Positions 5,474 to 41,870 of a DNA stretch of 43,351 bases are shown here, in pieces (positions within the stretch are counted from its first letter, which is position 1; each line of letters opens with the position of its first letter). The translations under genes were made by a program, and so were the position numbers. The stretch spans positions 1 to 43,351 of the forward strand of contig JBAXPC010000002.1 in NCBI GenBank assembly GCA_037132395.1. The letters run 5' to 3'. The notes below the pieces were generated by a model. It was given only the letters and a program-made list of their open reading frames with translations, searched no databases and was not told where the DNA came from. The stretch is from a bacterium (lineage in GTDB: Bacteria; Patescibacteriota; Saccharimonadia; CAILAD01; BJGX01).

Positions 5474-5579
5474 AAAAGTATCATAAAAACCTGACTCGGG
5501 TTTGATAATCGTATTGACCTATCACCAGCATAGGCATTATTATATTAAGTGACATCTAATTGTGAGGGGGTTTAATATA

Positions 5580-7226
5580 ATGAAAACAAAAGTTAAGACA
5601 AAGTTTATTTTTGTAACCGGCGGTGTGATTTCTGGACTCGGAAAAGGAATTACTGCTGCTTCAATCGGTAAGCTAATGTCGGCTCGAGGCATGAAGGTCA
5701 CAATGCAAAAATGTGACCCTTATTTGAATATGGACGCTGGTACACTTAATCCTTCCGAACACGGTGAGGTTTTTGTCACTAAGGATGGTGGGGAAACAGA
5801 CTTGGACCTAGGCCATTATGAGAGATTTATCGATACCGAGCTAACGCGTAAATCATCAACGATGAGTGGAAAGATATACTCCAAGGTACTATCCGACGAA
5901 CGCAAAGGTATGTACCTAGGTAAAACGATTCAGATTATACCTCATATCACCAACGAAATTATGAACCAAATCGTTGCATCTGGCGAGGGTAGTGATGTGC
6001 ATATAGCCGAAGTCGGTGGTACGGTTGGCGATTACGAGGCGATGGCCTGGATTGAGGCAATCCGGCAAATGAAGCGTCGTGTCGGGGAAGACAACATTCT
6101 CTATGCCCATGTGGTATATGTGCCGTATCTGGCTGTTAGTAAGGAGTTTAAGACCAAGCCAGCTCAAAACAGCGTTAGAGACTTGCGCGAGGCTGGTATT
6201 CAGCCCGACATACTATGTGTTCGTTCTGACGAGCCAATTAATGCCGAAGCATTCGATAAAATGAGCCTGTATTGTGATGTCGATAAGGATGCAATCGTAG
6301 CCCTGCCCAATTCTAAAAGTGTCTATGAAGTCCCTTTAAGAATGGAAGAAGCCGGCCTGGGCAACTATATCTGCAAGTTTATTGGTCTCAACTGCAAAAA
6401 ACCGGACTTAAAAGATTGGAAATTATTGGTAGATCGAATAAAGCAACCAAAGCCATCGGTATCGGTAGGCGTGGTAGCAAAATATATGAGTAACGAAGAT
6501 ACCTACTTGAGTGTTTTTGAAGCCTTACGATCGGCCGGGTGGCACCATAATCTCGATATCAACATCGTCTGGATTGACTCCGAAAAACTAATCGGTGACG
6601 AGTTCGAATTTGCTGGCCTTGATGGTATCTTGGTGCCTGGCGGTTTTGGAAGTCGTGGGCTAGAGGGCAAAATCTGGGCTGCTCGCTTTGCGCGCCAAAA
6701 TAATGTACCGTATTTGGGCTTGTGCCTGGGGATGCAGGTGGCGGTGATTGAATTTGCTCGCGAGGTACTAAATGATCCGTCGGCCAACAGTAGCGAGATA
6801 GACCCTGATACCAAAAACCCAGTGATACACATTATGCCGGACCAAATCGGCGTTGATTTGGGTGGCAGCATGAGGCTCGGCAACTATAAGGCTAAACTCA
6901 ATAAAAAATCTCGATCCTTCTTGGCTTATGGCAAGGGTAGTATTATCGAGCGTCATCGCCATCGCTACGAATTTAATAACGATTATCTAGTTCAGCTCGA
7001 GGCAGCTGGGCTAGTTATAGCCGCCACTTCACCAGACGGAAAGCTAGTAGAAATAATCGAGCATAAAAGCCATCCGTTCTTTGTCGCCTCACAGTTTCAT
7101 CCTGAGTATAAATCTCGACCAAACAGCCCACACCCATTATTTAAAGATTTTGTTGGTGCGATTAAGTTTGCCCAAGGTAACCCAATAAAACATCAACAAA
7201 AAAAAATAGTCAGTCGCGATAATTGA
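5580..7226 (+). CDS. pyrG: CTP synthase
   Basis: N-terminus KFIFVTGGVISGLGKGI, glutamine amidotransferase Cys in GLCLGMQ, and HRHRYE. GAGGGGG Shine-Dalgarno lies 9 nt before ATG 5580 (the ORF is open from GTG 5562). Confidence 0.96.
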   Translation: MKTKVKTKFIFVTGGVISGLGKGITAASIGKLMSARGMKVTMQKCDPYLNMDAGTLNPSEHGEVFVTKDGGETDLDLGHYERFIDTELTRKSSTMSGKIYSKVLSDERKGMYLGKTIQIIPHITNEIMNQIVASGEGSDVHIAEVGGTVGDYEAMAWIEAIRQMKRRVGEDNILYAHVVYVPYLAVSKEFKTKPAQNSVRDLREAGIQPDILCVRSDEPINAEAFDKMSLYCDVDKDAIVALPNSKSVYEVPLRMEEAGLGNYICKFIGLNCKKPDLKDWKLLVDRIKQPKPSVSVGVVAKYMSNEDTYLSVFEALRSAGWHHNLDINIVWIDSEKLIGDEFEFAGLDGILVPGGFGSRGLEGKIWAARFARQNNVPYLGLCLGMQVAVIEFAREVLNDPSANSSEIDPDTKNPVIHIMPDQIGVDLGGSMRLGNYKAKLNKKSRSFLAYGKGSIIERHRHRYEFNNDYLVQLEAAGLVIAATSPDGKLVEIIEHKSHPFFVASQFHPEYKSRPNSPHPLFKDFVGAIKFAQGNPIKHQQKKIVSRDN

Positions 7227-8877: not shown

Positions 8878-9879
8878 ATGCGTTTACGACACTTCTTTTT
8901 CTTTTTAGCCATTGTTCTGATATCGATATTAATAATCGTCCAGTTTGGTCAATTTGGTGACTTCTTGTCTGTCATAGTAAATGTTAATATCTGGCTACTT
9001 CTGGTAGTGGTGTTTTTACGATTCCTCTACTATCTAACCAATACGAAGTACTTTCAGGTATATCTAAAAAGTTTTGGCTACCATTTGGCATTTAAGCCTT
9101 TGTTTAAGGATGTTGTTACCATGAATTTTGCTAATACCGTGTTCCCGACAGGAGGCGTCAGTGGTATAGCCATACTACGTGGACGCCTAAGAAAGCATAA
9201 GATTTCGGCACACACATCAACGGTTGCGCAAGCGTTCTGGATGGGCTTTACTGGGATATCGTTTATAGTATTGCTACTAGCAAGTATGTTATTGCTTTTC
9301 GTATCGACGAGAATAGAGCAAGTTAGCTTTAGGCTAATACTAGCCGTCTTGCTTTTTATGCTAGTTGGCTCAATAGTCACCATGGCTTTACTGCTCAACA
9401 GGCGAGTTGCCGAACGAGCAGTCTATCTCCTAACAAGACCAATAAACTTTATTTTGAGACGTTTTGGTCGAGATTCTCTTGGCAAGCAGCAGCTAGAAGG
9501 TCTTTTTGATAAATTTTACGAGACACTACTAGATTTTAAGAGTGATTGGCGTAAGCTGGTAGGGCCTTTTTCGTGGTGTTTTATAACATTAGTTATTGAT
9601 ATAGCTTCGCTTTACATGGTATTTGTAGCTTTTGGTGTTTACCCTAACCCCGGCGTCGTTGCAGCAGCTTTTTTGGTTGCAATGGTAGTGTCTTTGGCAT
9701 CAGTCGTAACTTCTGGAATCGGTGTTTTTGAAATCGGTATGGTTAGTGTGCTGGTTGGGCTGGGACTGGCATTTGATATTAGTTTTTCGGCCGCAATTGT
9801 ATATCGCATTATCGCACTATGGCTATTCTTGCCAGTAGGCTTATATTTTTACAAGAAAGCAATGTTCGATGAAAAATGA
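8878..9879 (+). CDS. Flippase-like / lysyl-phosphatidylglycerol-synthase TM-region family membrane protein
   Basis: About 8 TM helices. The segment NFANTVFPTGGVSGIAILRGRL resembles the conserved loop of this family. TACAAT lies 6 nt before the ATG. Confidence 0.55.
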   Translation: MRLRHFFFFLAIVLISILIIVQFGQFGDFLSVIVNVNIWLLLVVVFLRFLYYLTNTKYFQVYLKSFGYHLAFKPLFKDVVTMNFANTVFPTGGVSGIAILRGRLRKHKISAHTSTVAQAFWMGFTGISFIVLLLASMLLLFVSTRIEQVSFRLILAVLLFMLVGSIVTMALLLNRRVAERAVYLLTRPINFILRRFGRDSLGKQQLEGLFDKFYETLLDFKSDWRKLVGPFSWCFITLVIDIASLYMVFVAFGVYPNPGVVAAAFLVAMVVSLASVVTSGIGVFEIGMVSVLVGLGLAFDISFSAAIVYRIIALWLFLPVGLYFYKKAMFDEK

Positions 9880-11071
9880 TGCTATTACCGTCAGTGAATT
9901 TAACGCTGTTTTAAACCAAACCCTGTCATTTGCTTACCCAGAAGTGGTAGTTGAAGGCGAGGTTTCGGGCTTTAAGGTCAGCCAGGGCAAGTGGGTGTTT
10001 TTTGATCTCAAAGATAGCGAAAGTGTGGTTGGTTGTTTTATTACCACCTACCAACTCAAGACCGAGCTCGAAGATGGTATGCTGATACGCGTCAAGGCCG
10101 CTCCGCAGCTCACGAAATGGGGCAAATTTAGTCTGACCGTCAGGGAAGTTGAGCTAGCCGGTGAAGGCTCGGTTAAAAGAGCTTTTGAAATGCTCAAGGC
10201 TAAGTTCGAAAAAGAGGGGTTGTTTTCACCAGAGCGCAAGCGACCACTGCCAGAATTCCCACAAAAGGTAATGCTTATTACGTCCGCTCAGGCAGCAGCA
10301 TATAACGATTTCGTCACTATCATCAACGATCGCTGGAGTGGAATCGACATCGACCATATTCAGGTGCAAGTTCAGGGAGCATTAGCGCCAACCCAAATTG
10401 TAGAGGCAATCAGCTACACGAACAGTGTTGCTGACGAGTATGACGCGCTTGTAATTATTAGGGGCGGCGGTAGTGCCGAAGATTTACAGGCATTCAATAC
10501 CGAAGAGGTCGTACGAGCTGTATTTGCATCCGATATCCCATCGATAGTCGCAATCGGGCATGAGGACGACGTATCGCTCGCCGAGCTGGCGGCCGATGTT
10601 CGAGCTGCTACGCCAACAGATGCTGCCCGCCGCTTAGTGCCAGATAGGGCCGAAATTCAGACGCGAGTAGCTGGCCTCGCTAGTTCAATGCTTAGCTCGC
10701 TAGAGAACAATGTCAGTATCAGCCGAGCCCAGCTCGAAGGCTTTTATCATAGCATCGAGATTCGTTTTAATAACCTCAGATACAATCTGGCAGATGTATT
10801 TTCCCGATCCTGTACTGCAATCGATGTCGCATTGAACAACTCTGTGGTTCGACTAGAGTCCAATAAGAAACTGCTTAGCACTCTCGACCCACGGGCTATT
10901 TTGTCTCGCGGCTATAGCATTACCAGAATCAACGGCAAGGTCGTCAAATCGCCAGATCAGTACAGCAGTGGCGATACGATTGTGATACAATTGCACCAAG
11001 GAAAAATCAGCTTAAAACCAACTGACAAAGGAGATACCAATGACAAGCAACAAACAGCCATTAGCTTTTAA
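9869..11071 (+). CDS. xseA: Exodeoxyribonuclease VII large subunit
   Basis: N-terminal OB-fold region and the IIRGGGSAEDLQAFN motif. It is followed by an overlapping xseB. Confidence 0.92.
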   Translation: MKNDAITVSEFNAVLNQTLSFAYPEVVVEGEVSGFKVSQGKWVFFDLKDSESVVGCFITTYQLKTELEDGMLIRVKAAPQLTKWGKFSLTVREVELAGEGSVKRAFEMLKAKFEKEGLFSPERKRPLPEFPQKVMLITSAQAAAYNDFVTIINDRWSGIDIDHIQVQVQGALAPTQIVEAISYTNSVADEYDALVIIRGGGSAEDLQAFNTEEVVRAVFASDIPSIVAIGHEDDVSLAELAADVRAATPTDAARRLVPDRAEIQTRVAGLASSMLSSLENNVSISRAQLEGFYHSIEIRFNNLRYNLADVFSRSCTAIDVALNNSVVRLESNKKLLSTLDPRAILSRGYSITRINGKVVKSPDQYSSGDTIVIQLHQGKISLKPTDKGDTNDKQQTAISF

Positions 11072-28380: not shown

Positions 28381-28455
28381 GGTCCCATCGTCTAACGGTT
28401 AGGACACCAGATTCTCAATCTGGCAATGCGGGTTCGATTCCCGCTGGGATCACCA
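28381..28455 (+). tRNA. tRNA-Glu (anticodon CTC), CCA encoded
   Basis: GGTCCCATCGTCTAACGGTTAGGACACCAGATTCTCAATCTGGCAATGCGGGTTCGATTCCCGCTGGGATCACCA folds as a cloverleaf. The anticodon stem is CCAGA/TCTGG and the loop is TTCTCAA. Confidence 0.9.
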
Positions 28456-28515
28456 GCTTAAATAGCAATTATATTGTAATATTATTTAAATAATATCATG
28501 GTAAAATACCATAAA

Positions 28516-29064
28516 ATGAACGAACACGTAGTTTTGGTAGACAATTCAAACCACGCAATCGGCACCGCCGATAAATACCAGGTTCACACCGGCAATACCC
28601 CCTTGCACCGTGGCTTTTCGTTGTTTATTTTTAATGCCCGTGGTGAGCTGCTACTGCAGCAACGCTCTCATAAAAAAATCGCCTGGCCCAATGTCTGGAG
28701 CAACTCTGTTTGCGGTCACCCAGCTAAAGACGAAACTGCCAAAGCTGCAGCTAAGCGGCGGGCCTACTATGAGCTGGGTATTGAGCTCAAGATAGCCAAT
28801 ATCAAAATGATGATCAAGGACTACCAATATCGATACGAGCATCAGGGAATTATTGAGAACGAAATCTGTCCTGTAATGGTGGCTTTTTATAATAGCGACG
28901 ATCAGCTACAGCCAAATCCCGATGAAGTAGCCGACTGCAAGTGGATAGCCTGGCAGTACTTTTTGGATCAGCTTGCTAAACCCAATAGCTACTCGGAGTG
29001 GTGTCAAGAAGAAGCCCTGCTGCTAGCTAGCTCCGAGAGGTTCAATAAGTTTCTTTTAGGGTAA
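28516..29064 (+). CDS. idi: Isopentenyl-diphosphate delta-isomerase, type 1 (Nudix fold)
   Basis: Collinear with E. coli Idi (HVVLVDN..., LHRGFSLFIFN, WPNVWSNSVCGHP, YELGIE). The alternative upstream ATG is at 28498. Confidence 0.88.
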   Translation: MNEHVVLVDNSNHAIGTADKYQVHTGNTPLHRGFSLFIFNARGELLLQQRSHKKIAWPNVWSNSVCGHPAKDETAKAAAKRRAYYELGIELKIANIKMMIKDYQYRYEHQGIIENEICPVMVAFYNSDDQLQPNPDEVADCKWIAWQYFLDQLAKPNSYSEWCQEEALLLASSERFNKFLLG

Positions 29065-29119
29065 ATAGCTATAGCACAGTTTGCCTTGTGGGTAGCTTAA
29101 GAGGTATCATTGAAAGGTA

Positions 29120-29752
29120 ATGCAAGAATTACTCAAAGCAACCCCTTTTATAGTTGGCGCTGCAATTAGCCCAGTGCTTTTGGTTATGACACTATTTATA
29201 CTATCCAGGCCAGTTGCACCAGCTAAAAAGAGCCTACTATTTTTGCTGGGCTCAGCGGTTACAATTACGCTAATTGGGACGATTATATTTTTTACCACCA
29301 CCATAAGACCCGACCCAAGCCCTGGCAAGGATTTACTACCGCACATTATTATTGGTTTATTGCTGTTATTTTTAGCATTTAATATTCTTCGCCAGGGCCC
29401 CGCCAAAGCCGAGAACAAGCCTCAAAAAAATGATAGCCCCATAAAATACCTAACACTTGGGGCAATCCTAATGCTGACCAACTTCACTACCATTGCGATG
29501 GTATTTGCACTAGCCCTGGAGCTACGATCCTCTAGTATCTTGGGTGCCGAAAAAATTATGTACTTGGCGGCCGTAATTATATTCGCATTGCTACCGATAA
29601 TTTTACCGCTCTTGGTTCTGGCCATAGCGGGCAAAAGGAGTGCCGATATCCTCGAAAAACTCTCCAGCTTTATGCAGCGCTACGCCCACATCGCAACGGC
29701 CGTCTTTTTTGCACTAATGGCTGTTTATGTACTACTTAAGCCGTTCTTGTAG
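29120..29752 (+). CDS. Integral membrane protein (GAP / Sap-like family, tentative)
   Basis: Six predicted TM helices. The N-terminus FIVGAAISPVLLVMTLFILSRP resembles the GAP family pattern. Confidence 0.45.
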   Translation: MQELLKATPFIVGAAISPVLLVMTLFILSRPVAPAKKSLLFLLGSAVTITLIGTIIFFTTTIRPDPSPGKDLLPHIIIGLLLLFLAFNILRQGPAKAENKPQKNDSPIKYLTLGAILMLTNFTTIAMVFALALELRSSSILGAEKIMYLAAVIIFALLPIILPLLVLAIAGKRSADILEKLSSFMQRYAHIATAVFFALMAVYVLLKPFL

Positions 29753-29870
29753 CGCTGTCACAACTACCTAGCCAGCGACTAGCGAGGGGCTGTCACAGCC
29801 TTGCTTTATGGTGCGTTATGATTACCGGTATAACATTTAAGATGCGCAACGAAAGGTAATATAAACAACT

Positions 29871-30263
29871 ATGAACAATACATCAAAACTAACAATCGCC
29901 TCAATCGCCACAGTAGCTCTGTTGGCCGGCGCTGCTGTGCCAGCATTGGCAGCTGTGCATATGCGCCCTAGCAATGTTCAGCGTAGTGGCGTCTCCGAAG
30001 AGACCAAGGCTGCAAGCTATAGCGATCGACAAGCACGAGTAGCCGACAAGCTAGACCGCGCCGTGCAAAGTGGCAAAATAACCGCCGATCAAAAAGCACA
30101 GATTATAGCTAAGCTAGCCGAAATGCACAGCTACCGGATGTCGTTAAAGGATTTGCCACAACCTGAACGCAAGCAGGCCATCAAATCCAAAAAGGCCGAG
30201 CTTAAGCAGTGGGCCATTGATAATGGCATCAACCTTAGGATGTTTGCCGGTGGACACAAATAA
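29871..30263 (+). CDS. Secreted helical hypothetical protein
   Basis: Signal peptide (LTIASIATVALLAGAAVPALAA) followed by a charged helical region. A strong terminator follows. Confidence 0.6.
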   Translation: MNNTSKLTIASIATVALLAGAAVPALAAVHMRPSNVQRSGVSEETKAASYSDRQARVADKLDRAVQSGKITADQKAQIIAKLAEMHSYRMSLKDLPQPERKQAIKSKKAELKQWAIDNGINLRMFAGGHK

Positions 30264-30291
30264 GTTTTAGCTATTAGATATAGCAGTTTTT

Positions 30292-30323
30292 AAAAAATCT
30301 AGCCCACAGAGGGCTAGTTTTTT
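30292..30323 (+). terminator. Rho-independent terminator
   Basis: CTAGCCC (30299-30305) pairs with GGGCTAG (30311-30317). It is flanked by an A-run and a T6 run. Confidence 0.7.
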
Positions 30324-30417
30324 ATGCTATGTCTAACCAATTCGAGAGAGGCGAAAATAAATAACAGCTACTTTGGCAAGATTATAATCTGGTTTGTTGG
30401 TGTCTGTGCGGTGGTTA

Positions 30418-30445
30418 TTGATTTGAGAGCTTTTTAGGCTATAAT
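30418..30445 (+). promoter_or_regulatory. Candidate sigma-70-type promoter (TTGATT-16 nt-TATAAT)
   Basis: Both hexamers were read directly. It lies about 45 nt upstream of the GGAGG/GTG start at 30489. Confidence 0.45.
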
Positions 30446-30488
30446 ATAGCTGTTCAGAGTTCGCCTAGACGAAACTGGAGGTATCAAA

Positions 30489-30719
30489 GTGTTGGAGCCG
30501 AATATGATTAGCCAGGCGGCACGCTATATCTACCCTGGATTAGTTTTGCCAGTCGTGCCTTATTGCGCTAGCGAAGGGCTTGATCCGAGTCTAGTGCCAC
30601 ACCAACTCGGTGCCATAGGCTTCGATTTTGTCAAAATCTTCCAGTTCGAAATCGAGCCAGGGTTTTGCTTCGAACACGTCTTGTCCTACGTAGAAAATCA
30701 CACTGGGGAGAAGAGATAA
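30489..30719 (+). CDS. Hypothetical protein, possibly the 5' half of a frameshifted gene
   Basis: GGAGGT lies 6 nt before GTG 30489. It overlaps the next ORF by 55 nt in a different frame. Confidence 0.4.
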   Translation: MLEPNMISQAARYIYPGLVLPVVPYCASEGLDPSLVPHQLGAIGFDFVKIFQFEIEPGFCFEHVLSYVENHTGEKR

Positions 30720-30889
30720 GTATCGATGACCTGACTAACTCACCCGAGCTTGCAAGCATCAAAGAGCTGGTTGAGACCAACAGATTCGTAATAACATCAT
30801 GGGGGGCATTGATACCCCTCTTTGAGGACGATATAGCCGTCCCATACCCAAATACTGTCGAGCTACCGCTCGATATGCGCCTAGATTAA
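30665..30889 (+). CDS. Hypothetical protein, possibly the 3' half of a frameshifted gene
   Basis: Frame -1 relative to 30489..30719. It has no Shine-Dalgarno of its own, and a terminator follows directly. Confidence 0.35.
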   Translation: MLRTRLVLRRKSHWGEEISIDDLTNSPELASIKELVETNRFVITSWGALIPLFEDDIAVPYPNTVELPLDMRLD

Positions 30890-30900
30890 TATTATTTACT

Positions 30901-30951: not shown

Positions 30952-31275
30952 CTACTTATTTTTGAGTGCTTTTTTTTGGAGTCGTTTTTGGGCTGCAATG
31001 CGCACCAGAATATTGAGGCTGGCAGCAATAATACCAACGCCTATCAGCACATAAAATATCGTAAATAGCTTGGTGCCTGGTGTGGTGGGGTGAATATCGC
31101 CGTAACCCACGGTGGTAATAGTGATCACCGAAAAATAAACCGCGTCTATCCAGCTCAAGTGCAGGAACCTATGATAAAAGACTGATCCAGTAGCAATAAC
31201 AGATAAGGCTGTCAGCACCACCCACTTGAAGTGTAGGGCTGTATCAACTGCTTCAGACGATTTGTGTCTAGTCAT
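30952..31275 (-). CDS. Minimal two-TM potassium channel (KcsA-like pore, no RCK or ligand domain)
   Basis: Selectivity filter TTVGYGD is flanked by two TM helices. ATG 31275 lies 7 nt after TATAAT (31288-31283, minus strand). There is an alternative GTG at 31293. Confidence 0.85.
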   Translation of the reverse strand: MTRHKSSEAVDTALHFKWVVLTALSVIATGSVFYHRFLHLSWIDAVYFSVITITTVGYGDIHPTTPGTKLFTIFYVLIGVGIIAASLNILVRIAAQKRLQKKALKNK

Positions 31276-31357
31276 GACTATAATTATAACCACTAAGCAA
31301 CTTAAACACCAAATTATTCTTGCTCTATATATTAATTCTTATGCTAAAGTAAATCGT

Positions 31358-32140
31358 ATGAAACCCAAAACGAAACAAGGCAAGAAACTACAGAATTTTA
31401 ATATAATAATGGGCTGCATACACTTAGTCCAAGCTACAGTGATGCTATTTATCTTAAATTACAGCCTAAAAATACCTATTATCACTAGGTTTTTTGATCA
31501 GTCTCCCAACGGCAGCTTTACTGTATCTACTAAAGTTCTGATAGATGTCCCAATAGCAGTTGTAGCACCAGTATTCTTACTTATTTCGGCTCTTTTCCAT
31601 TTCATCATCTCGTCACCTTTTTATGTACGTCGCTATGAGGCGAATATAAAAAAGGGCTATAACCCTATGCGCTGGATCGAATATTCATTAAGTAGCTCAG
31701 TTATGTTGGTCGCGCTACTTATGATGGGTGGTATCAATGAACTCTCAAGTGTAGTGTTTGTTTTTACTCTAAACTTTTTGATGAACATGTGGGGGCTAGA
31801 GATGGAGCGTTACAACCAGCTCACCGAAAAGATCAAGTGGTTTCCGTACAACATGGGCGTAATCGCAGGTATAGTACCATGGATTATCGGTGGCCTATAC
31901 TTCTGGGTCAGCACCACCAATGTCGCCGACAGTATCCCTTGGTATGCCAAGCTAGGGTTCTTGATCACGTTCCTATTCTTCAATAGCTTCGCTATCAATA
32001 TGGTTCTTCAGTATCTCAAGGTAGGCCGCTGGAAGAATTACGTACATGGCGAACGCGCCTATATATGGCTTAGCCTGATAGCCAAAAGCTCACTAGCCTG
32101 GATTCTTGTGCTAGGAACCCTAAATATAGCAGCAAAATAG
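31358..32140 (+). CDS. Heliorhodopsin (7-TM retinal protein)
   Basis: Collinear with HeR-48C12 as recalled: KLQNFN, GCIHLVQ (His22), ISALFHFIIS (His81), RWIEYSLSSSVM (Glu108), IAGIVPWI, FFNSFA, GERAYIWLSLIAKSSLAW (Lys243). The ORF is open from 31226, but ATG 31358 fits the family N-terminus. Confidence 0.92.
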   Translation: MKPKTKQGKKLQNFNIIMGCIHLVQATVMLFILNYSLKIPIITRFFDQSPNGSFTVSTKVLIDVPIAVVAPVFLLISALFHFIISSPFYVRRYEANIKKGYNPMRWIEYSLSSSVMLVALLMMGGINELSSVVFVFTLNFLMNMWGLEMERYNQLTEKIKWFPYNMGVIAGIVPWIIGGLYFWVSTTNVADSIPWYAKLGFLITFLFFNSFAINMVLQYLKVGRWKNYVHGERAYIWLSLIAKSSLAWILVLGTLNIAAK

Positions 32141-32281: not shown

Positions 32282-32728
32282 CTACTTTAGTGTGCCGATT
32301 TGGTAGCTAGCAAGAATACTATCGGCTCGACTAGAATGTCCGCTTTTCCGGCCACCCTTAGTATTGTAGGCGCTAGTAGCATCCTTACCACAATACATTA
32401 GTATTAGGTCAGCTCCGCCAGGGTGCTGATCGATGTAGGCTGTGATGTCGTAGATGTTAGAATTAATAATTAGCCAGCAATCCTTGTAAGATTTGTGCCC
32501 GGCTACTTCAGCTATTGAGTATGATTTAGGGCCTGAGCCTTGCGTTGTGGGGGATGTTTGATCATTAGAGGTAGCGCCGCCGGGCTCGCCAGTATTAGTA
32601 CCAGAGCCAGTGTTAATTCCAGCGGGCGTTGCAGATTCCTTGACTTGTTTATCAATAAAACCCCATATAAACATTGTGCCCATGGTTAGTACAAACAGCA
32701 TAAACACAATAGCAACTAGTTTTTTCAT
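32282..32728 (-). CDS. Membrane-anchored cytochrome b5-like heme-binding domain protein
   Basis: N-terminal TM, a Gly/Thr/Ser-rich linker, then HKSYKDCWLIINSNIYDITAYIDQHPGGADLILMYCGKDATSAYN. ATGA overlap with the upstream gene. Confidence 0.85.
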   Translation of the reverse strand: MKKLVAIVFMLFVLTMGTMFIWGFIDKQVKESATPAGINTGSGTNTGEPGGATSNDQTSPTTQGSGPKSYSIAEVAGHKSYKDCWLIINSNIYDITAYIDQHPGGADLILMYCGKDATSAYNTKGGRKSGHSSRADSILASYQIGTLK

Positions 32729-34038
32729 GCTAGGTAAAACTCCTCGGTGTTAATGTTTTTATTTATTACGCCCATGGCTTTTAGCTGTTCTTTAAGGTTG
32801 GTCATCATCAATTGAGGTCCGCAGATCATGAAACTTGCGCCTGTAAGATCGGAGCTAGTCTTAAAGATATAATCAGCCGTCAAGAAGCCATTGGTGTTAG
32901 CTGTAAACGGGATGATAGTTAGGTTCGTTTTGAATCTGGCTATTTGCTTGAGTTTGGGCAAGTAGGCTGCTTCTTGGGCGGTTTTTGTAGAGTAATACAG
33001 GTCGACCCTCTGGCTATCGTCTAGCGCTTCAGCCATCGCTACGAAGGGAGTTATGCCTATCCCACCAGCAACCCAAATCTGACGACGGTTCAATATTACT
33101 TTATTAGAGAATGTACCATAGGGGCCATCAACCTTGATTTTGAGACCGACCTTAGCCTCGGCCATAAGCTTTGTGTAGTCGCCTAATGATTTGATACCAA
33201 ATTTTATAGCTGGCTCACCAGTATCGGTGCTTGCACCGCTCATACTAAAGGGGTGTGACTGTCCGAGAACTCCATCGGCTTCAGCCTTTATAAAAGCAAA
33301 CTGGCCTGGTAAATACGCCATAGGCTTGCCAATTGGAGTCAGCTTTAACTCATAAATATCACCAAAACTCGTTACGCTAGCTAGGCTGTACTGATAGTAT
33401 TTCGAAAAGTTACCGTGAAAAATCGAACGGTAAACATATACAACTCCTGCCAAGATTATCAATCCAAAAATATAGGCTTGCAGAGCTAACAGCCCAGAGT
33501 TAATACCTAGGTCGCTTGAGCCTACAAATATGGCGTGTATGCCACCAAAGAACAATAAGAGACCCAGTAGTCGTTGGGCTAATACAAATCTTTCGTATTT
33601 GACGTTCATATAAAGTGTGACCAGCATCAAGGCCGACATACTAAATAGAGTTATCGAGCCTAGGGCAGAAAATGGCGAGGCAAAACTTGGTTTCAAAAAT
33701 TCAAAAGCTGCCATCGGTGACGAAAGAAAGTACCGATACGCTATTGCTACCGGATGAATTAGCAGTAAAATATAGGCTAACGAACCTATGATATGGTGCG
33801 CTCGGTAAGTATTGTCGAGGCCCATAAAGAGCTTGTTGTATATCTTAAGACGGGCACTCAAAATAACATTCCAGGCAAATAAAGACATTCCAGCCAGGCC
33901 GGCTAATCTACCGATGTTATCAAATATTAGCTTTGGTGTATTCCATTGTGATGGCATCGCAGCTAGCCACAAAGCAACGGGGATAATTGCGACCAAAATT
34001 GTTATAAGCCAGCCAAGGTTTGTGTATCGATTGCGCAT
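32725..34038 (-). CDS. Ferric-reductase/NOX-like flavocytochrome (6-TM heme domain plus FAD- and NAD(P)H-binding domains)
   Basis: TM His pair in HHIIGSLAYILLLIH, FAD motif HPFSMSG and NAD(P)H motif GGIGITPF. Confidence 0.85.
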   Translation of the reverse strand: MRNRYTNLGWLITILVAIIPVALWLAAMPSQWNTPKLIFDNIGRLAGLAGMSLFAWNVILSARLKIYNKLFMGLDNTYRAHHIIGSLAYILLLIHPVAIAYRYFLSSPMAAFEFLKPSFASPFSALGSITLFSMSALMLVTLYMNVKYERFVLAQRLLGLLLFFGGIHAIFVGSSDLGINSGLLALQAYIFGLIILAGVVYVYRSIFHGNFSKYYQYSLASVTSFGDIYELKLTPIGKPMAYLPGQFAFIKAEADGVLGQSHPFSMSGASTDTGEPAIKFGIKSLGDYTKLMAEAKVGLKIKVDGPYGTFSNKVILNRRQIWVAGGIGITPFVAMAEALDDSQRVDLYYSTKTAQEAAYLPKLKQIARFKTNLTIIPFTANTNGFLTADYIFKTSSDLTGASFMICGPQLMMTNLKEQLKAMGVINKNINTEEFYLA

Positions 34039-35633: not shown

Positions 35634-36341
35634 ATGGATATCAATAGGTTCACTGGAGATGAATCAAATGGCCTCGCACTAGCTTCTATTTTGCTAAGAG
35701 CCGAGGAAGATGCCGCCAAGAATAAAGAATTACAAGAAGAAATAGCGGATCTACAAAAAAGACTTGATCTTGATGCATTCACTGGGCTGCTTAATAAGCA
35801 GGCGTTTAACCGTGAGCTGGGTAGAAGAGTAGATATCAGCATCACAACTGGTGAACCTGTGGCGCTGGCCTTTCTAGATATCGACTTTTTTAAGCAAGTT
35901 AATGACACTCTTGGCCATGATATAGGAGACGAGCTAATACTAGCACTTTCAACTAGACTTAGAGATGGCGATGCATACGTAATCGGACCTACCGTCCTCC
36001 ATAGCACTGACCCAGCAGGCTCCAGGCAAGGAAGGCTTGGCGGCGATGAATTTGGAGTTCTCGCATCGCTTACGCAGAGAGACCAGGATAGAGATACCAA
36101 CAACACCCCGCTGTCACCCGAGCAAAGATTTGAGGGATTTAAATCTCATATCTTGAAGCTGTGCCAAGAGTTTATAGGAGCTCATCCTGAGATTAAAAAG
36201 ATGGTACCAGGTTTTGATATAAGCGTTGGTTTTGCTAGCTCCACGGGCATCGAGGGCACAGCTACATCCGAAGCTCTAGTCAGAGCTGCAGATCAAGATA
36301 TGTACAAAGCAAAAGGACGCAACAAAGCCAACCCCAGTTAG
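35634..36341 (+). CDS. Stand-alone GGDEF-domain protein (putative diguanylate cyclase) with no sensor domain
   Basis: Stalk helix plus DAFTGLLNKQAF, FLDIDFFKQVND and RLGGDEFGVL. No RxxD I-site lies 5 residues upstream of GGDEF. There are insertions on both sides of the GGDEF loop. Confidence 0.85.
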   Translation: MDINRFTGDESNGLALASILLRAEEDAAKNKELQEEIADLQKRLDLDAFTGLLNKQAFNRELGRRVDISITTGEPVALAFLDIDFFKQVNDTLGHDIGDELILALSTRLRDGDAYVIGPTVLHSTDPAGSRQGRLGGDEFGVLASLTQRDQDRDTNNTPLSPEQRFEGFKSHILKLCQEFIGAHPEIKKMVPGFDISVGFASSTGIEGTATSEALVRAADQDMYKAKGRNKANPS

Positions 36342-36479
36342 TAACCACTAGGCTACTTAAGGCTGCTTACATTATATTACTTTTATTGCAGAATGAGCTG
36401 TTCTAGCTGAGATTGTGTATTGATTAGATTTAGAGTTATTAGACACTAACGACTAACAATGTAGTATAGTAGCTATAAT

Positions 36480-37121
36480 ATGAATACCAACCTCCCCAAT
36501 TACGCTTTTATTGATAGCCAAAACCTCAATCTCGGCATTCGATCGCAGGGCTGGAAACTCGACCACCGCAAGCTGCGTCTGTACCTCAAAAACAAGTACA
36601 ACATCGAGAAAGCCTTTATATTTATTGGTCATGTTACCGACAACCAAAGCCTCTACGACGAGCTCGAGCAGGCTGGTTTTATAATGGTTTTTAAGCCAAC
36701 TGTTGGCTATATGGAAAACGGCAAAGAGATCGTTAAAGGTAATGTCGATGCCGAGCTAGTTTTACATGCCGCCGCCATTGAGTACAACAATTACAATAAA
36801 GCGGTCATCATTACCGGCGATGGCGACTTTAATTGCCTCATCGAATATTTGAGCCAAAAAGGCAAATTGCTTAATCTTTTAGTCCCAAGCGACAGGTTCT
36901 CGAAATTACTAAGTAGCCACACCAAAAAAATTGTCAAAATGAGCGAGCTACGTAGTAAGCTCGAGCTACGGGCACGAAAGCGCAAGCCGACACCCGCGAA
37001 TACTCCGAATCCGACTCCGAATCCGACAAGCACTGCTGCGCCGCAAGACCAGCCAAAGCAGCCTTTCAAGCCTAATAACCAACCTAAACCCCAAGATAAT
37101 ATTCAGAATACGCCTCGATAA
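36480..37121 (+). CDS. NYN (LabA-like/PIN-like) domain protein with a Pro/Asn/Thr-rich C-terminal tail
   Basis: YAFIDSQNLNLG at the N-terminus, ITGDGDFNCLIEYL, and the tail PTPANTPNPTPNPTSTAAPQDQPKQPFKPNNQPKPQD. Confidence 0.78.
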   Translation: MNTNLPNYAFIDSQNLNLGIRSQGWKLDHRKLRLYLKNKYNIEKAFIFIGHVTDNQSLYDELEQAGFIMVFKPTVGYMENGKEIVKGNVDAELVLHAAAIEYNNYNKAVIITGDGDFNCLIEYLSQKGKLLNLLVPSDRFSKLLSSHTKKIVKMSELRSKLELRARKRKPTPANTPNPTPNPTSTAAPQDQPKQPFKPNNQPKPQDNIQNTPR

Positions 37122-37329
37122 TTTAATTTAGTTTAATTTAAGCAAAAAAAATAACCAGGAGTAGCTTTCGGTCGAAACCTTTGGCCTGCCTGGTTTGGTG
37201 ATATATCCAATATACCAAAAGGCATAAGCAAGGTCAATACCCGCTTGCAATAACTGCTGTTTTTTAGGCTCATTAAAAAAAGAATTACCATCCTTCCTAA
37301 CATAAGTAGCCTTTTTTAAAGCTTATGAT

Positions 37330-37370
37330 TGCTACAATCAAATCATAAAAGTGCTACAATCAAAGCATAA
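37330..37370 (+). promoter_or_regulatory. Direct 19-bp repeat (TGCTACAATCAAATCATAA / TGCTACAATCAAAGCATAA), a possible duplicated -10/operator upstream of the SDR gene
   Basis: The two copies are 3 bp apart and each contains TACAAT. TTATGAT (37324-37330) is also the inverted complement of ATCATAA (37342-37348). Confidence 0.4.
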
Positions 37371-37385
37371 GGGAGTATGTTACGT

Positions 37386-38192
37386 ATGAATATCTCAGAC
37401 AAAGTTTTTGTAGTTACTGGCGCAGCTAGTGGCATCGGCAAAGAAATCACCATGGCACTATTGGCTAAAGGCGCCAAGGTCGCGGCCGTAGACCTCAAAG
37501 AAGAAACTCTAAAGGAGCTTAGTGAAGAGCTAGGCTCAAATAGCAAAAACATTAGTACCCACGCCCTTAGTGTTGCTGACAAAAAAGCCGTCGAGGCCTT
37601 GCCTGGCGAAGTTATTGCCAAGCTTGGGCAGATCGATGGCGTTATTAATAATGCCGGTATTATTCAGCCTTTTGTAAAAATCAACGACCTAGACTACGAA
37701 GCAATCGACAGAGTAATGGGTGTTAACTTTTATGGCACACTCTATATGCTAAAAGCCTTTTTACCAGTACTCCTCAAGCGGCCCGCAGCCCACATTGTAG
37801 ACATCTCTAGTATGGGCGGATTTTTGCCAGTACCAGGGCAGGCAGTTTATGGCGCATCGAAAGCCGCTGTAAAATTGCTTACCGAAGCCCTTCAAGTTGA
37901 GCTAATTGATACCAACGTCGGTGTGACGGTAGTATTTCCGGGGGCTACAAGTACCAATATAACTAAAAATTCTGGTGTCAAATCACCCATTAGCGAAGAG
38001 GCCGCCAAAAAAATCAAGATTCCGACCCAGTCGCCAAAAGATGTAGCTAAATTAGTTATTAAGGCCATCGAAACCAATCAGACACAGGTTTTTGCAGGCA
38101 AAGACTCGAAGTTTATGAACCGTCTGTACCGCCTCAGCCCGAGCTACGCCACAGGCCTGATTGCCAAACAAATGAAGTCGCTACTTAAGTAG
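37386..38192 (+). CDS. Short-chain dehydrogenase/reductase (classical SDR)
   Basis: Motifs TGAASGIGKE, NNAG and YGASKAA. GGGAG lies 10 nt before ATG 37386 (the ORF is open from ATG 37377). Confidence 0.9.
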   Translation: MNISDKVFVVTGAASGIGKEITMALLAKGAKVAAVDLKEETLKELSEELGSNSKNISTHALSVADKKAVEALPGEVIAKLGQIDGVINNAGIIQPFVKINDLDYEAIDRVMGVNFYGTLYMLKAFLPVLLKRPAAHIVDISSMGGFLPVPGQAVYGASKAAVKLLTEALQVELIDTNVGVTVVFPGATSTNITKNSGVKSPISEEAAKKIKIPTQSPKDVAKLVIKAIETNQTQVFAGKDSKFMNRLYRLSPSYATGLIAKQMKSLLK

Positions 38193-38240
38193 CTCGCAAT
38201 TTGATACCTAACATTAGTAAGTCAGCTATTATTTAGTACT

Positions 38241-38276
38241 AATAACAAAAGCAGCGAATATAATTATCCGCTGCTT
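38241..38276 (-). terminator. Hairpin terminator, best oriented for the minus-strand gene
   Basis: AAGCAGCG pairs with CGCTGCTT (12-nt loop). TTTTGTTATT follows on the minus strand. Confidence 0.55.
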
Positions 38277-38287
38277 ATTGCTGTTAG

Positions 38288-38959
38288 TTATTGTGTGGCG
38301 GCAGGAGTGGTTGGAGTCGTTGTTGATGCTGGGGTAGTCGTTGTTGATGCTGGAGTAGTCGTTGTTGATGCTGGAGTCGTTGTTGATGCTGGGGTAGTTG
38401 CTGCCGTTGTACCACAGGTGATCTTATTGGCTTCTTCTTTTGAGACGACGAACATTATTAAGCTTATCATCTGGTCGGTATCACCAGCTTTCGGTCTTTG
38501 CAAGACAATATCGAAGTGATTAACTGGGTTGTCTGTAGTAAGTGCTAATAGTGTTTTCGAGAACTGATCAGGATTTTTTAAGAGCCCGTTGACGCCTAGT
38601 GAGTACTCAATAGCGATTACTTCGCTGTTTCGCACATCGAAGATTGGGCCGGCAGGGATGTTTTTGGGCTCAATATACTGCTTGCCTCGACCAGGAATAC
38701 ATTCGTTAAGCACAATAGCCTCTTTGGGGAGGTTGATCGGCTTAGCGACCACTACAGCCACTTTGGCTGTTTCTTTATTTTGCTTGCCTATTAAAAACGC
38801 ACCAAAAGTCGATGCTGCAAATAGTGCTAAAATCGACACAATTATTAATATTTTGTTAATATTAGATTTTTTAGGTTGCGGAGCCTGATTCATGGGACCT
38901 GAGCTTATGGGGCCTGCACCGGCATTGCCGATGTTGTTGTTGTTGTTATTATTATCCAT
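38288..38959 (-). CDS. Membrane-anchored hypothetical protein with a poly-Asn N-terminus and a Thr/Pro-rich C-terminal repeat
   Basis: MDNNNNNNNIGNAG..., TM ILIIVSILALFAASTFGAFLI, a globular domain, then TTPASTTTPASTTTTPASTTTTPASTTTPTTPAATQ. The ORF is open to 39016. Confidence 0.65.
   Translation of the reverse strand: MDNNNNNNNIGNAGAGPISSGPMNQAPQPKKSNINKILIIVSILALFAASTFGAFLIGKQNKETAKVAVVVAKPINLPKEAIVLNECIPGRGKQYIEPKNIPAGPIFDVRNSEVIAIEYSLGVNGLLKNPDQFSKTLLALTTDNPVNHFDIVLQRPKAGDTDQMISLIMFVVSKEEANKITCGTTAATTPASTTTPASTTTTPASTTTTPASTTTPTTPAATQ
38316..38396. repeat. Tandem 18-21-bp repeat (GTCGTTGTTGATGCTGG[GGTA])
   Basis: Four consecutive units were read directly. They encode the (T)TTPAS repeat on the minus strand. 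Confidence 0.85.
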
Positions 38960-39108
38960 AAGCTTTATTATAGTAGTATGTTTACTATTGTCAACAGCTA
39001 TAATCAAAATAAGCAATACAACCCGTTGCGGGCGTTATTGGCTTCTATATTATTGTCTCGCGCTGCAGTAGAACCACGAGTGCAAACTTTAAAGCACAAT
39101 ACACTATA

Positions 39109-41067
39109 ATGGCGTTCCATTTACTACCCAGACTCAAAATTTCCTCAAAGGTATTGGTGTTTTTCTTATTCGTTTCATTATTGCCACTACTGGTAGTGAG
39201 TGTTGTTCTGGTGGGTCGAGGGCGAGCCTTGCTGCTAGACGCCGCCATAACCAAGCAAAAGGTGGTAGCCACTAGCACCGCCGATAAGGTCAATATTTTT
39301 CTTGATGACCGTATCAGAGCACTGGTATTGGAGTCGAAGTTACTGGCCCTAGCTAAATCCGAGCCTGCACTCACTAGCAAAGATTTCGCAGCACTCATTA
39401 AACAAGATAAAAGTATTCAGGAAGTTATACTTTTGGATCCGAAAGGCGTGCAGGTAGTAAAGGTCGATGCCAACGGCTCAGATTTTAGTACTCCCGACCG
39501 CTCATCGTCTGATTCGTTTAAAGCCGTCGGTTTTTTGGAGGGGAGGTATTTTGTAAGCTCCGTTAGCTATGGTCAAAATAACGAACCCTCTATCACCATA
39601 GCCGTACCGATATTGCCTACCAACCTCAGCCAAGCTCAAGACGAAACTACTCGTTCGGCGTCCAGCCCCAAAATAACTTCCGATGTTTTTCTTGGTGTTA
39701 TAGTAGTCAAATACAATATCGGCGATCTGTGGCAGTCGGTGCTCTCGACAACTATCGGCAAAGGTGGCTATGCCTATGTGGTCGATAGCCTTGGCAACCT
39801 CGTGGCGCATCCCGATAGCAACTATTTGGCAAAGAACCAAAAAATAGCCGATGTTGAAGCCGTCAAAAACTATATCAATGACAATTTCGAAACCAAAATT
39901 ACCACCTCTGAGCAGGGTGTAAGCGTCGTTAGTACCCCTACCAAACTATCTAGCAATAGCTGGGCAGTAATAGTTCAGGAGCCAGTTTCGAGTGTTTATT
40001 CGGGTATCAACTCTTTTATTGAGCTCTCGGTAATTATTATTGTATCCTCGGCGCTGTTTGCAATCGTCCTTAGTTTGATATTCCGCAAACAGCTCCTCGA
40101 CCCCATTAAGCAGCTGCTTATCGGTACCAAAAAGATCTCCGAAGGTGACTATAGTTATACCGTTAAGGTCAAATCTAACGACGAGCTGCGATATTTGGCC
40201 GAAACCTTCAATAGTATGTCGCAAAATATCAATAAGCTCGTTGGCGATCTGAAAATCAAAAACGCCGACCTCGACAAAGCAACCAACCAGCTCAGCGAGG
40301 CCAATGAAAAACTTCAGCAAGCCGATACCACCAAGGACGAGTTTATATCGATGGCCTCGCATCAGCTGGGCACTCCACTGGCCACCATCGAGGGCTACCT
40401 GAGTATGGTCAACCAAGGTTACTACGGTCCGCTCAACGAAAAGCTGGCCACGACAGTCAATAAGGCCCTCGGCCGCACCAATGTCATGAAAGGCTTACTG
40501 GCCGACTTTTTAGATGTCAGCCGCATGACGGCCAATAAGTTTTATCTCGACATCGAGCCAACTGATTTTAATAAAATCATCGCCGAAGAGGTCGGTGCCC
40601 TAAAAGCCTCGGCTGCCGAAGCCAAGGTCGAGCTAGCTTACCACGCCCCAGAGCAGGTACCACCGCTAATGAATATCGACGAGCATAAAACCCGCCAGGC
40701 CGTAATGAACCTCATCACCAACGCCATCAATTACACCAAGGGCGGTAAGGTCGATGTCTTTTTGCGCTACGATAGTGTTAATGCCCAGTACACCGTGGTC
40801 GATAACGGCATCGGCGTGCCAGACGAACAAAAGTCGAAGCTATTTAAAAAGTTTTATCGTGCCGATAATGCCAAAGAGACCCTACCAACTGGCACGGGCT
40901 TAGGTCTATACCTAGTTAAGCGCGTCGTTGAAGACCAGGGCGGCAAAATTATCTTCCATAGCGAAGTCGGCAAGGGCTCGACCTTCGGCTTTGTACTGCC
41001 TCTTGATACTAAGCTGCCGCTTGGGCAGTATCTGGCGCCGTCCAATAGTGCCGACGAGTCGGCTTGA
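39109..41067 (+). CDS. Sensor histidine kinase (extracytoplasmic Cache-like domain, HAMP, HisKA, HATPase_c)
   Basis: Two TM segments flank a roughly 270-aa loop. H-box FISMASHQLGTPLATIEGY, N-box NLITNAINYT, and G-boxes DNGIGVP and GTGLGLYLVKRVV. Confidence 0.9.
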   Translation: MAFHLLPRLKISSKVLVFFLFVSLLPLLVVSVVLVGRGRALLLDAAITKQKVVATSTADKVNIFLDDRIRALVLESKLLALAKSEPALTSKDFAALIKQDKSIQEVILLDPKGVQVVKVDANGSDFSTPDRSSSDSFKAVGFLEGRYFVSSVSYGQNNEPSITIAVPILPTNLSQAQDETTRSASSPKITSDVFLGVIVVKYNIGDLWQSVLSTTIGKGGYAYVVDSLGNLVAHPDSNYLAKNQKIADVEAVKNYINDNFETKITTSEQGVSVVSTPTKLSSNSWAVIVQEPVSSVYSGINSFIELSVIIIVSSALFAIVLSLIFRKQLLDPIKQLLIGTKKISEGDYSYTVKVKSNDELRYLAETFNSMSQNINKLVGDLKIKNADLDKATNQLSEANEKLQQADTTKDEFISMASHQLGTPLATIEGYLSMVNQGYYGPLNEKLATTVNKALGRTNVMKGLLADFLDVSRMTANKFYLDIEPTDFNKIIAEEVGALKASAAEAKVELAYHAPEQVPPLMNIDEHKTRQAVMNLITNAINYTKGGKVDVFLRYDSVNAQYTVVDNGIGVPDEQKSKLFKKFYRADNAKETLPTGTGLGLYLVKRVVEDQGGKIIFHSEVGKGSTFGFVLPLDTKLPLGQYLAPSNSADESA

Positions 41068-41191
41068 GGTATGAAGCGCGCTGCCTTGCCAAACTAGCTA
41101 TTATGAAACTATCTATTTTTGGGGCCAGTGATAAAATCGGTGGTCATACTAGCCTATTAATCTACTAACCCTTTTTTAGCTTTTTTGCAAT

Positions 41192-41219
41192 TTGCTAGGT
41201 ACAATATAAGTATTACAAT
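41192..41219 (+). promoter_or_regulatory. Candidate promoter (TTGCTA-16 nt-TACAAT) for the SOD gene
   Basis: Both hexamers were read directly. This would place the transcription start about 20 nt upstream of ATC 41247. Confidence 0.4.
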
Positions 41220-41246
41220 GTAACAACCAAAAGAAAGGCCAATACC

Positions 41247-41870
41247 ATCAAAAAATTCGTTCTACCCAAGCTCAAATACGCCACTAACGCCCTAGAGCCA
41301 ATAATGTCTCAAGAAACTATTGAGTATCACTATGGCAAGCACCACCAGGCCTATATTGATAATCTCAATGGTCTTATCGAGGGTACAGATCTTGCCGAGC
41401 TGCCAATTGAAGAGGTTATTGTTAAGGCCGAGCCGGGCCCAATTTTCAATAACTCCGCCCAGGCTTATAATCATAGCTTTTACTGGCAGTGCCTGACCAC
41501 GCCGCAAGGCGAGGGCAATGCGCCATCGGGCAAGCTAGCTCAGGCCATAGACGAAGCTTTTATAGATTTTGCCACCTTCAAGACTCAGTTTAGTGAGATG
41601 GCCAGCAAACATTTTGGCAGTGGCTGGGCCTGGCTGTTTGTTGGCAAATCCGGCAAGCTCGAAATGCTTGCTATGCACGACGCCGGCACACCTATTCAAG
41701 ACGGCCTCAAACCACTCCTTGCCGTAGATGTCTGGGAGCACGCCTACTACATCGACTACCGCAACAAGCGCCCGGATTATGTCGCCGCTATCTGGCAAAT
41801 TATCGACTGGAAGTTTGTCGAGTCTCAGTACGACGCTACCGCGCCCAGCTCGCTGATGCTCCCAGAGTAG
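41247..41870 (+). CDS. sodB: Fe/Mn superoxide dismutase (Fe-type-like), probably initiating at ATC 41247 (first ATG is at 41304)
   Basis: The in-frame upstream sequence encodes [18 protein letters not shown], matching the conserved SOD N-terminus ([17 protein letters not shown] in E. coli SodB). Downstream are EYHYGKHH and [18 protein letters not shown] lies 8 nt before the ATC. Confidence 0.88.
   Translation: [207 protein letters not shown]

Follow-up and report, generated by a model that had tools for sequence, protein, structure and literature searches.

The stretch of DNA described here, which we refer to as the window, consists of 43,351 nt of contig JBAXPC010000002.1 (assembly GCA_037132395.1) from a freshwater member of the Saccharibacteria in the Candidate Phyla Radiation (CPR; Patescibacteria), and it contains a gene for a 260-aa heliorhodopsin (HeR). 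The product is almost certainly a genuine, intact, retinal-binding HeR photoreceptor, and there is a good probability that it is a functional light sensor that scavenges its retinal, does not pump ions, and acts on a partner protein. It belongs to a CPR lineage whose closest relatives outside the CPR are the HeRs of acI/Nanopelagicales Actinobacteria, and it lies among membrane-protein genes that are partly conserved in related genomes.

Identification of the heliorhodopsin gene

The HeR gene and the codons of its key residues are located as follows.

31358..32140, + strand: HeR coding sequence, ATG to stop, 260 aa (open reading frame, profile matches and structure model)
31421..31423, + strand: codon of H22, aligned with 48C12 H23 and conserved in at least 90% of homologues
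31598..31600, + strand: codon of H81, aligned with 48C12 H80 and invariant in 40 homologues
31679..31681, + strand: codon of E108, the Schiff-base counterion, aligned with 48C12 E107 and invariant in 40 homologues
32084..32086, + strand: codon of K243, Schiff-base lysine for retinal (motif S239-x-x-x-K243), aligned with 48C12 K241

The protein matches the Pfam family PF18761 (Heliorhodopsin) over the whole length of the profile (positions 1-242 of 242, residues 11-255; E=1.1e-80, 271 bits against a cut-off of 26.7), as well as the NCBIfam equivalog NF038020 'HeR' (286 bits, cut-off 100). When all PDB sequences were searched the sole matches were heliorhodopsins, the best being 48C12 (E=2.7e-54) and TaHeR (E=6e-54). 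The type-1 rhodopsin profile PF01036 (Bac_rhodopsin) gave no match at E<=0.01, and the motif in the seventh transmembrane (TM) helix is SxxxK, not DxxxK. A first-pass annotation made from the sequence alone had described the protein as collinear with characterised HeRs and had assigned K243, E108, H22 and H81 to their roles; the full-length profile matches and the alignments to 48C12 and TaHeR bear this out, with K243 and E108 falling in their proper places. In pairwise alignment H22, H81, E108, S239 and K243 correspond to H23, H80, E107, S237 and K241 of 48C12, and R105, W106, Y109, N102, E150, W175, Y228 and E232 are also kept (48C12 R104, W105, Y108, N101 and E149 being among the residues in common). 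The residues lie in the motifs GCIHLVQ (H22), ALFHFI (H81), RWIEYSLSSS (E108) and SLIAKSSLAW (K243), and S239 and K243, which bracket the motif S239-L-I-A-K243, are invariant among the 40 homologues.

An AlphaFold2 model built from the 40 homologues (mean predicted local distance difference test score, pLDDT, 82.7; a prediction, not an experimental structure) has seven TM helices, a short intracellular helix at residues 90-99, and a long beta-hairpin in the first extracellular loop (ECL1), of the kind typical of HeRs, with strands at 38-48 and 54-65. The ten best Foldseek matches to the model in the PDB are all HeRs (6is6, 7u55 and 6su3 among them; TM-score 0.77-0.84), and the next are type-1 rhodopsins with TM-scores of ~0.5-0.6 and 8-15% identity. 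With the N-terminus placed inside, the N-terminal tail and the three loops on the same side hold ~16 Lys/Arg residues against ~5 on the opposite side, a count that uses only the positive-inside rule and the helix limits of the model; five of the lysines fall within residues 1-10, and the distribution agrees, indirectly, with a cytoplasmic N-terminus. The residues that line the lateral fenestration of HeRs (as listed in bioRxiv 10.1101/2025.11.27.691015) are kept, Y164, V168, G171, F208, N209 and A212 corresponding to 48C12 positions 162, 166, 169, 206, 207 and 210. The protein would thus be a seven-TM photoreceptor of inverted topology, with K243 binding all-trans-retinal and E108 serving as the counterion.

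Of the two characterised proteins, 48C12 (from a freshwater actinobacterial fosmid; PDB 6su3, 6uh3) is collinear over the full length at ~40-45% identity and shares the ECL1 beta-hairpin and the fenestration, but comes from another host phylum and has Q213 where the window HeR, like TaHeR, has a methionine (M215). TaHeR (from a Thermoplasmatales archaeon; PDB 6is6, 7u55) is the best structural match to the model (TM-score 0.79-0.84) and likewise has a tyrosine at the fenestration (Y164), but differs in its archaeal host, its identity of ~42% and its genomic context.

Comparison with related HeR genes gives a proportion of synonymous differences (pS) of ~0.8, which is saturated, and a proportion of non-synonymous differences (pN) of 0.09-0.19, from which it follows that strong purifying selection acts on the genes and that the lineages are old.

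HeRs of freshwater Saccharimonadia and their reliance on borrowed retinal have been published, and the present case is not new in kind nor, in essence, as an individual example. In a screen of 1326 CPR genomes, Chiriac et al. (2022; PMC9166423) reported 98 HeRs, 80 of them in Saccharimonadia, with SLIAK among the commonest retinal-binding motifs; these share phylum, habitat and the SLIAK motif with the window HeR, and the novelty implied by the first-pass annotation was to that extent overstated. GenBank entry MEI6741930.1, named 'heliorhodopsin HeR', is in the same 90%-identity cluster, and its locus (L007; loci retrieved here are given by L numbers) matches the window protein at 99%. The supplementary tables of Chiriac et al., as searched, have no entry for the UBA6175/SLIAK lineage, and PMC9166423 does not discuss the gene neighbourhood or the actinobacterial affinity described below.

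Phylogenetic position, host and contig integrity

The HeR was placed among 80 genome loci, obtained from a pattern-based and hence biased scan, by neighbour joining with 200 bootstraps. Its nearest relatives in this set are from a metagenome-assembled genome (MAG; 99% identity), Umea_bin-07027 (73%) and Saccharibacteria UBA6175 (64%), followed by ~26 HeRs of acI/Nanopelagicales Actinobacteria at 60-67% (63% being the value we quote for acI). The other HeRs of Saccharibacteria, Dojkabacteria and Chloroflexota are just 40-46% identical to it (~42% for other CPR), and most of the Saccharibacteria and Dojkabacteria HeRs retrieved make up this separate lineage. The grouping of the window clade with the acI clade has 100% bootstrap support, as has the acI clade itself, and the window (CPR) clade has 68%; 48C12 lies on a different branch from the acI-type clade. 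As judged from the protein tree, the CPR hold two deeply separate HeR lineages, and that of the window is sister to the acI/Nanopelagicales HeRs, not to the other CPR HeRs. Within the CPR clade, HeRs on the same contigs as the CTP synthase PyrG are 72-83% identical where PyrG is 81-83% identical; HeR divergence therefore tracks PyrG divergence, and inheritance within the clade is vertical.

The sister relationship is consistent with an old transfer between phyla, the direction of which is left undecided by the 68% bootstrap of the CPR clade. No statement of this acI affinity of a CPR HeR lineage was found in the literature searched. It fits a history in which genes passed between episymbionts and the Actinobacteria that have been put forward as their hosts and retinal suppliers; such an exchange, if true, would add a second molecular link, independent of the first, to a still unproven freshwater partnership. 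The acI/Nanopelagicales HeRs are the closest non-CPR clade and come from the same habitat, but their hosts are free-living and usually make their own retinal (PMC12817590).

An affinity of this kind (63% identity to acI HeRs against 42% to other CPR HeRs), together with the lack of a retinal pathway, is also what would be seen if the gene were a relic, or if assembly or binning had placed actinobacterial DNA on a CPR contig. We regard this as extremely unlikely. An identical HeR, set among the same CPR genes, was recovered from lake metagenomes and MAGs on 22 contigs that were assembled independently, the GC content is uniform along the window, and CPR genes flank the HeR on both sides; the contigs and the composition rule out a chimeric contig or actinobacterial contamination. 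Carriers of the gene include GCA_964865775.1, ELA453 (JBAXMM01) and the 116-kb IMG contig Ga0209596_1000038, and a 70% relative is represented by the 804-kb contig Ga0643546_0000001. The tracking of PyrG by HeR divergence argues in the same direction, and the purifying selection and conserved key residues rule out a pseudogene or relic.

The host assignment is supported by several of the flanking genes. PyrG is 96% identical to a protein of a 'Patescibacteria group bacterium' and 82% to one of a 'Candidatus Saccharibacteria bacterium', the cluster that holds the isopentenyl-diphosphate isomerase (Idi) includes a member named Patescibacteria, and the order RF2-FtsE-FtsX-CHAP is syntenic with loci in Saccharibacteria MAGs. 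The housekeeping genes of the window (RF2, FtsEX, CHAP hydrolase, sortase, MreB, MurA, class I ribonucleotide reductase, glutamyl-tRNA synthetase and CTP synthase) are typical of a small monoderm genome. No outer-membrane genes are present in the window, which does encode a sortase, a CHAP peptidoglycan hydrolase and an FtsEX-type divisome, and the description of the source as a reduced monoderm genome was accurate. HeRs are reported to be absent from diderms, and the Patescibacteria/Saccharibacteria host found here agrees with that distribution.

Two actinobacterial loci were seen to carry two HeR paralogues each, ~9 kb apart (L032 at 764-1588 and 9980-10771; L036 at 474-1238 and 9451-10221). 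In each locus one paralogue falls with the acI type, the sister of the window clade, and the other groups with 48C12.

Source of the retinal

A single isoprenoid gene is present in the window.

28498..29064, + strand: type-1 isopentenyl-diphosphate isomerase, idi (NF002995, 204 bits against a cut-off of 127; TIGR02150, 140 bits)

This gene ends 2.3 kb upstream of the HeR, as had been noted earlier, and the earlier report of no blh or crt genes in the window also held: among the 48 plausible open reading frames (ORFs) of at least 90 aa scanned with Pfam (a set that leaves aside short and overlapping ORFs) there is no Blh, carotenoid oxygenase, CrtB, CrtI, CrtY or other carotenoid or retinal enzyme. 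The called genes in the 20 kb flanks of twelve related loci similarly gave no match to Blh, carotenoid oxygenase, CrtB, CrtI or CrtY.

Jaffe et al. (2022; PMC9296517) described rhodopsin-bearing Saccharibacteria that lack blh, found that the type-1 rhodopsins of Saccharibacteria take up external retinal rapidly, and identified Nanopelagicales Actinobacteria as the main carriers of blh in the same lakes. All cultivated Nanopelagicales encode a HeR and many are capable of retinal synthesis (PMC12817590). In the account given in PMC9296517, TaHeR comes from a host without a retinal pathway and quickly binds exogenous retinal through its fenestration, and uptake of exogenous retinal was also proposed by Shihoya et al. 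(2019), as cited there. Because there are no retinal or carotenoid genes in the window, in the flanks of its relatives or, in published surveys, in rhodopsin-bearing Saccharibacteria, external uptake is the most likely source; the residues of the fenestration through which retinal enters TaHeR are kept, which makes such uptake plausible. Retinal would then enter from outside through the lateral fenestration, and we think it probable that it is acquired from retinal-producing Actinobacteria, the co-occurring Nanopelagicales being the most plausible source. The earlier suggestion that the chromophore may be scavenged is thus reasonable, but the idea had already been published (PMC9296517). The type-1 rhodopsins of Saccharibacteria (SacR; PMC9296517) belong to the same host group and follow the same scavenging logic, but they are outward proton pumps of the type-1 family with a DTS motif, and the window HeR has no Bac_rhodopsin match.

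The same fenestration has been proposed to hold an exogenous xanthophyll antenna in most HeRs (preprint 10.1101/2025.11.27.691015), and the window HeR could then be a two-chromophore light harvester for which both pigments are scavenged. The signature of the carotenoid site given in the preprint (an aromatic pair at 48C12 positions 162 and 206, Gly169, and non-bulky residues at 166 and 210) is present as Y164, F208, G171, V168 and A212, and, as the preprint points out, inverted topology would make the site accessible from outside a monoderm cell. The proposal comes from docking and sequence statistics and does not state how the absorbed energy is used. On balance we consider an antenna somewhat unlikely here, and it would be compatible with a sensor in any case.

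Light sensing and ion transport

By analogy with the characterised bacterial and archaeal HeRs, the protein likely does not pump ions, has a slow photocycle, and gives its output through contact with a partner. HeRs have been found to regulate partners through binding (PMC11109279), and a sensory role and protection against oxidative stress have been proposed for CPR HeRs (PMC9166423). The window HeR would accordingly be a slow-cycling light sensor that works by contacting a partner protein directly and altering its activity.

Some HeRs transport protons, according to work cited in PMC11109279 and PMC12873467, and an ion-transporting function similar to that of the viral proton transporter V2HeR3 was considered in this light. 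The window HeR lies in a bacterial clade next to the acI HeRs, and its counterion and histidine set are the same as those of 48C12 and TaHeR. Pushkarev in 2018 and Shihoya in 2019 are said to have found no transport for 48C12 and TaHeR. The viral transporters moreover belong to a subfamily without the fenestration signature, which the window HeR possesses, and we judge ion transport to be very improbable.

Gene neighborhood in the window

The genes on either side of the HeR are as follows.

30952..31275 (GTG-start ORF to 31293), - strand: mini two-TM K+ channel, 107 aa from its ATG, that carries a TVGYGD filter and lacks a gating domain (Pfam Ion_trans_2, E=1e-21); divergent from HeR
31276..31357, no strand: AT-rich divergent intergenic region of 82 bp between the K+ channel and HeR, the slot occupied by TspO in relatives (compared with L087, L089, L093 and L097)
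32282..32728, - strand: membrane-anchored cytochrome b5 (cyt-b5)-domain protein, convergent with HeR (Pfam Cyt-b5, E=5e-20)
32725..34038, - strand: NOX/FRE-like transmembrane reductase (Pfam Ferric_reduct, FAD_binding_8 and NAD_binding_1)

With its upstream neighbor divergent and its downstream neighbor convergent, the HeR gene appears to be monocistronic. Scans for promoters and terminators around it found promoter-like sites to be no commoner than in shuffled sequence, and no terminator between the HeR and cyt-b5 genes. The end of the NOX-like gene overlaps the start of the cyt-b5 gene, and these two therefore form an operon. Farther downstream, the segment at 35634-41870 encodes a stand-alone GGDEF protein, an NYN-domain protein, a short-chain dehydrogenase/reductase (SDR), a Cache-HAMP histidine kinase and an Fe-superoxide dismutase (Fe-SOD); the GGDEF protein, the histidine kinase and the Fe-SOD sit 3.5-10 kb from HeR, and the SDR, despite rearrangements, is still found within 2.5-5 kb of the relatives' HeR genes. 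Bulzu et al. (2021; PMC8612252) reported histidine kinases and GGDEF proteins near HeRs of Patescibacteria. Taken with the mini K+ channel and the cyt-b5/NOX-like operon, these neighbors would point to an ion response or a redox (photo-oxidative stress) response triggered by light.

Conservation of the neighborhood among relatives

The arrangements in related loci, with HeR identity to the window protein in parentheses, are as follows.

L093, L087 and L089 (80-87%): K+ channel (- strand); TspO, HeR and a 219-aa membrane protein (all + strand), with gaps of 2-48 bp from TspO to HeR to the 219-aa gene; cyt-b5 and NOX-like genes (both - strand)
L097 (73%): K+ channel, then TspO, HeR and the 219-aa gene, retained
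L098 (73%): HeR with a 131-aa protein, then K+ channel, NOX-like and cyt-b5 genes
TspO/MBR genes upstream of HeR: L087 at 5572-5967, L089 at 916-1311, L093 at 4863-5264, L095 at 2261-2647 and L097 at 4543-4911

In these five relatives with TspO (HeR 72-87% identical) the gene is co-oriented with HeR and 31-94 bp upstream of it, and in all but L095 a 219-aa membrane protein of unknown family is found 3' of HeR (4/5). The window strain has lost both. The cyt-b5/NOX pair is a presence/absence polymorphism, strains L001 and L004 having an identical HeR and no pair, and in L098 it is found on the other side, behind the K+ channel. Adjacency of the channel and HeR is kept in six diverged Saccharibacteria lineages. 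Some traces of the neighborhood extend to Actinobacteria, with TspO (797-1258) the divergent neighbor of HeR in L019 and cyt-b5-domain genes 1.7-3 kb from HeR in three loci (L016, L027 and L036); this hints at an older link with HeR. The HeRs of acI/Nanopelagicales have no mini K+ channel beside them.

In the Umea_bin-07027 lineage (L098 at 4468-4863, L009 at 340-735) a soluble 131-aa protein takes the place of TspO between the channel and HeR, with a weak match, below the Pfam cut-off, to the RNA polymerase alpha C-terminal/helix-hairpin-helix domains.

The occurrence of the channel was determined with a hidden Markov model (HMM) built from 120 homologues and searched against 100 loci. It finds the channel only in the window sub-clade and next to HeR at none of the other 78 genome loci; L008, L095 and L096, which belong to the HeR clade, have no mini-channel. 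Three homologues of the channel, 53-60% identical, lie in other, unrelated surroundings. A metagenome scan seeded with the channel alignment returned at least 80 loci, mostly of distant K+ channels, with a single close relative, whose contig is too short for its surroundings to be assessed; among the matches listed, none of the 79 loci with more distant channels carries a HeR within ~5 kb, which means only that pairing with HeR is not a general property of K+ channels.

Candidate partners

The adjacency raises the prospect that the HeR and the divergent pore-only channel together form a light-regulated K+ conductance, in which the HeR gates or modulates the channel and so sets membrane potential in a cell that lacks a respiratory chain. 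The channel itself is devoid of a gating domain, and its position next to HeR has been maintained among HeRs that are 73-87% identical and saturated at synonymous sites, including the case (L098) where the cyt-b5/NOX pair has moved. A relative without an Ion_trans_2 channel (L091, HeR 79%) has an unrelated TMEM175-family K+ channel at 2221-2841, 200 bp downstream of HeR, a single case, and the distant metagenomic channels lack a nearby HeR as described above. Against this, the association has a single evolutionary origin and does not recur at the 78 other loci or in the three clade members named, mini-channels of 53-60% identity are found in other settings, and the two genes are divergent and not co-transcribed; as the wider region (SfLAP, ABC2, idi and SDR) is also syntenic among relatives, the adjacency may be passive. 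We think it distinctly unlikely that the two form such a pair, which would if true be of interest to optogenetics.

More broadly, the partner of the HeR sensor may be one of the membrane proteins of this island, with an output in K+ conductance or in control of transmembrane electron transfer and oxidative stress, a speculation that we hold to be doubtful or, at its best, tentative. One version has the HeR as the light input of a conserved membrane island (the pore-only K+ channel, the porphyrin-binding protein TspO, the 219-aa membrane protein and the cyt-b5/NOX-like reductase) that couples light to K+ conductance, membrane potential and/or redox defense in a cell that scavenges retinal and tetrapyrroles, with the HeR possibly exchanged with likely Nanopelagicales hosts and the window strain a natural TspO-less variant; this too is unlikely.

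Several observations weigh against a scavenging light sensor with a partner nearby. The HeR has no operon partner in the window, and none of the neighbors, whether on the K+ channel side, TspO or the cyt-b5/NOX pair, is obligatory for it, since strains with an identical HeR lack the cyt-b5/NOX pair and the window itself lacks TspO. The conserved neighbors could be inherited synteny within one lineage, given the channel homologues that are not beside a HeR. The negative result for retinal genes covers the window and the flanks of relatives, and blh, a carotenoid cleavage dioxygenase (CCD) or a novel retinal-forming enzyme may be encoded elsewhere in the genome.

A physiological output has been established for few HeRs so far (glutamine synthetase, photolyase and ABC transporters), and the K+ channel, TspO and cyt-b5/NOX-like neighbors provide concrete candidate partners for this photoreceptor family. 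Ten recurrent operon partners of HeRs were listed by Cho et al. (2024; PMC11109279), namely glutamine synthetase (GS), NAD synthetase, photolyase, MerR, TerC, ABC transporter, SDR, alpha/beta hydrolase, DUF2177 and DUF2238; the K+ channel, TspO and NOX-like reductase are absent from this list, and the window does have an SDR. No co-mention of TspO and heliorhodopsin was found in the literature searched, and the titles and abstracts of papers on heliorhodopsin and potassium channels concern channelrhodopsins, viruses or reviews. The island is thus a new lead to candidate HeR partners, not functional evidence.

Variation between tRNA-Glu and the K+ channel

The region between tRNA-Glu and the channel varies among strains. 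At 30489-30889 (+ strand) the sister contigs L001-L003 and L006 have a single ORF of 133 aa, which in the window is represented by an allele of ~70% nucleotide identity with a 1-bp deletion that splits it into ORFs of 76 aa and 74 aa; the split marks either a pseudogene or a mistake in assembly. Between tRNA-Glu and the K+ channel (28381-30900) the whole tract is hypervariable, with Idi 70-95% and a 130-aa ORF 56% identical among strains and with extra small genes in L001 and L004, while NrdA and HeR on its flanks are 97-100% identical. This suggests that the tract is a recombination hot spot beside a tRNA gene.

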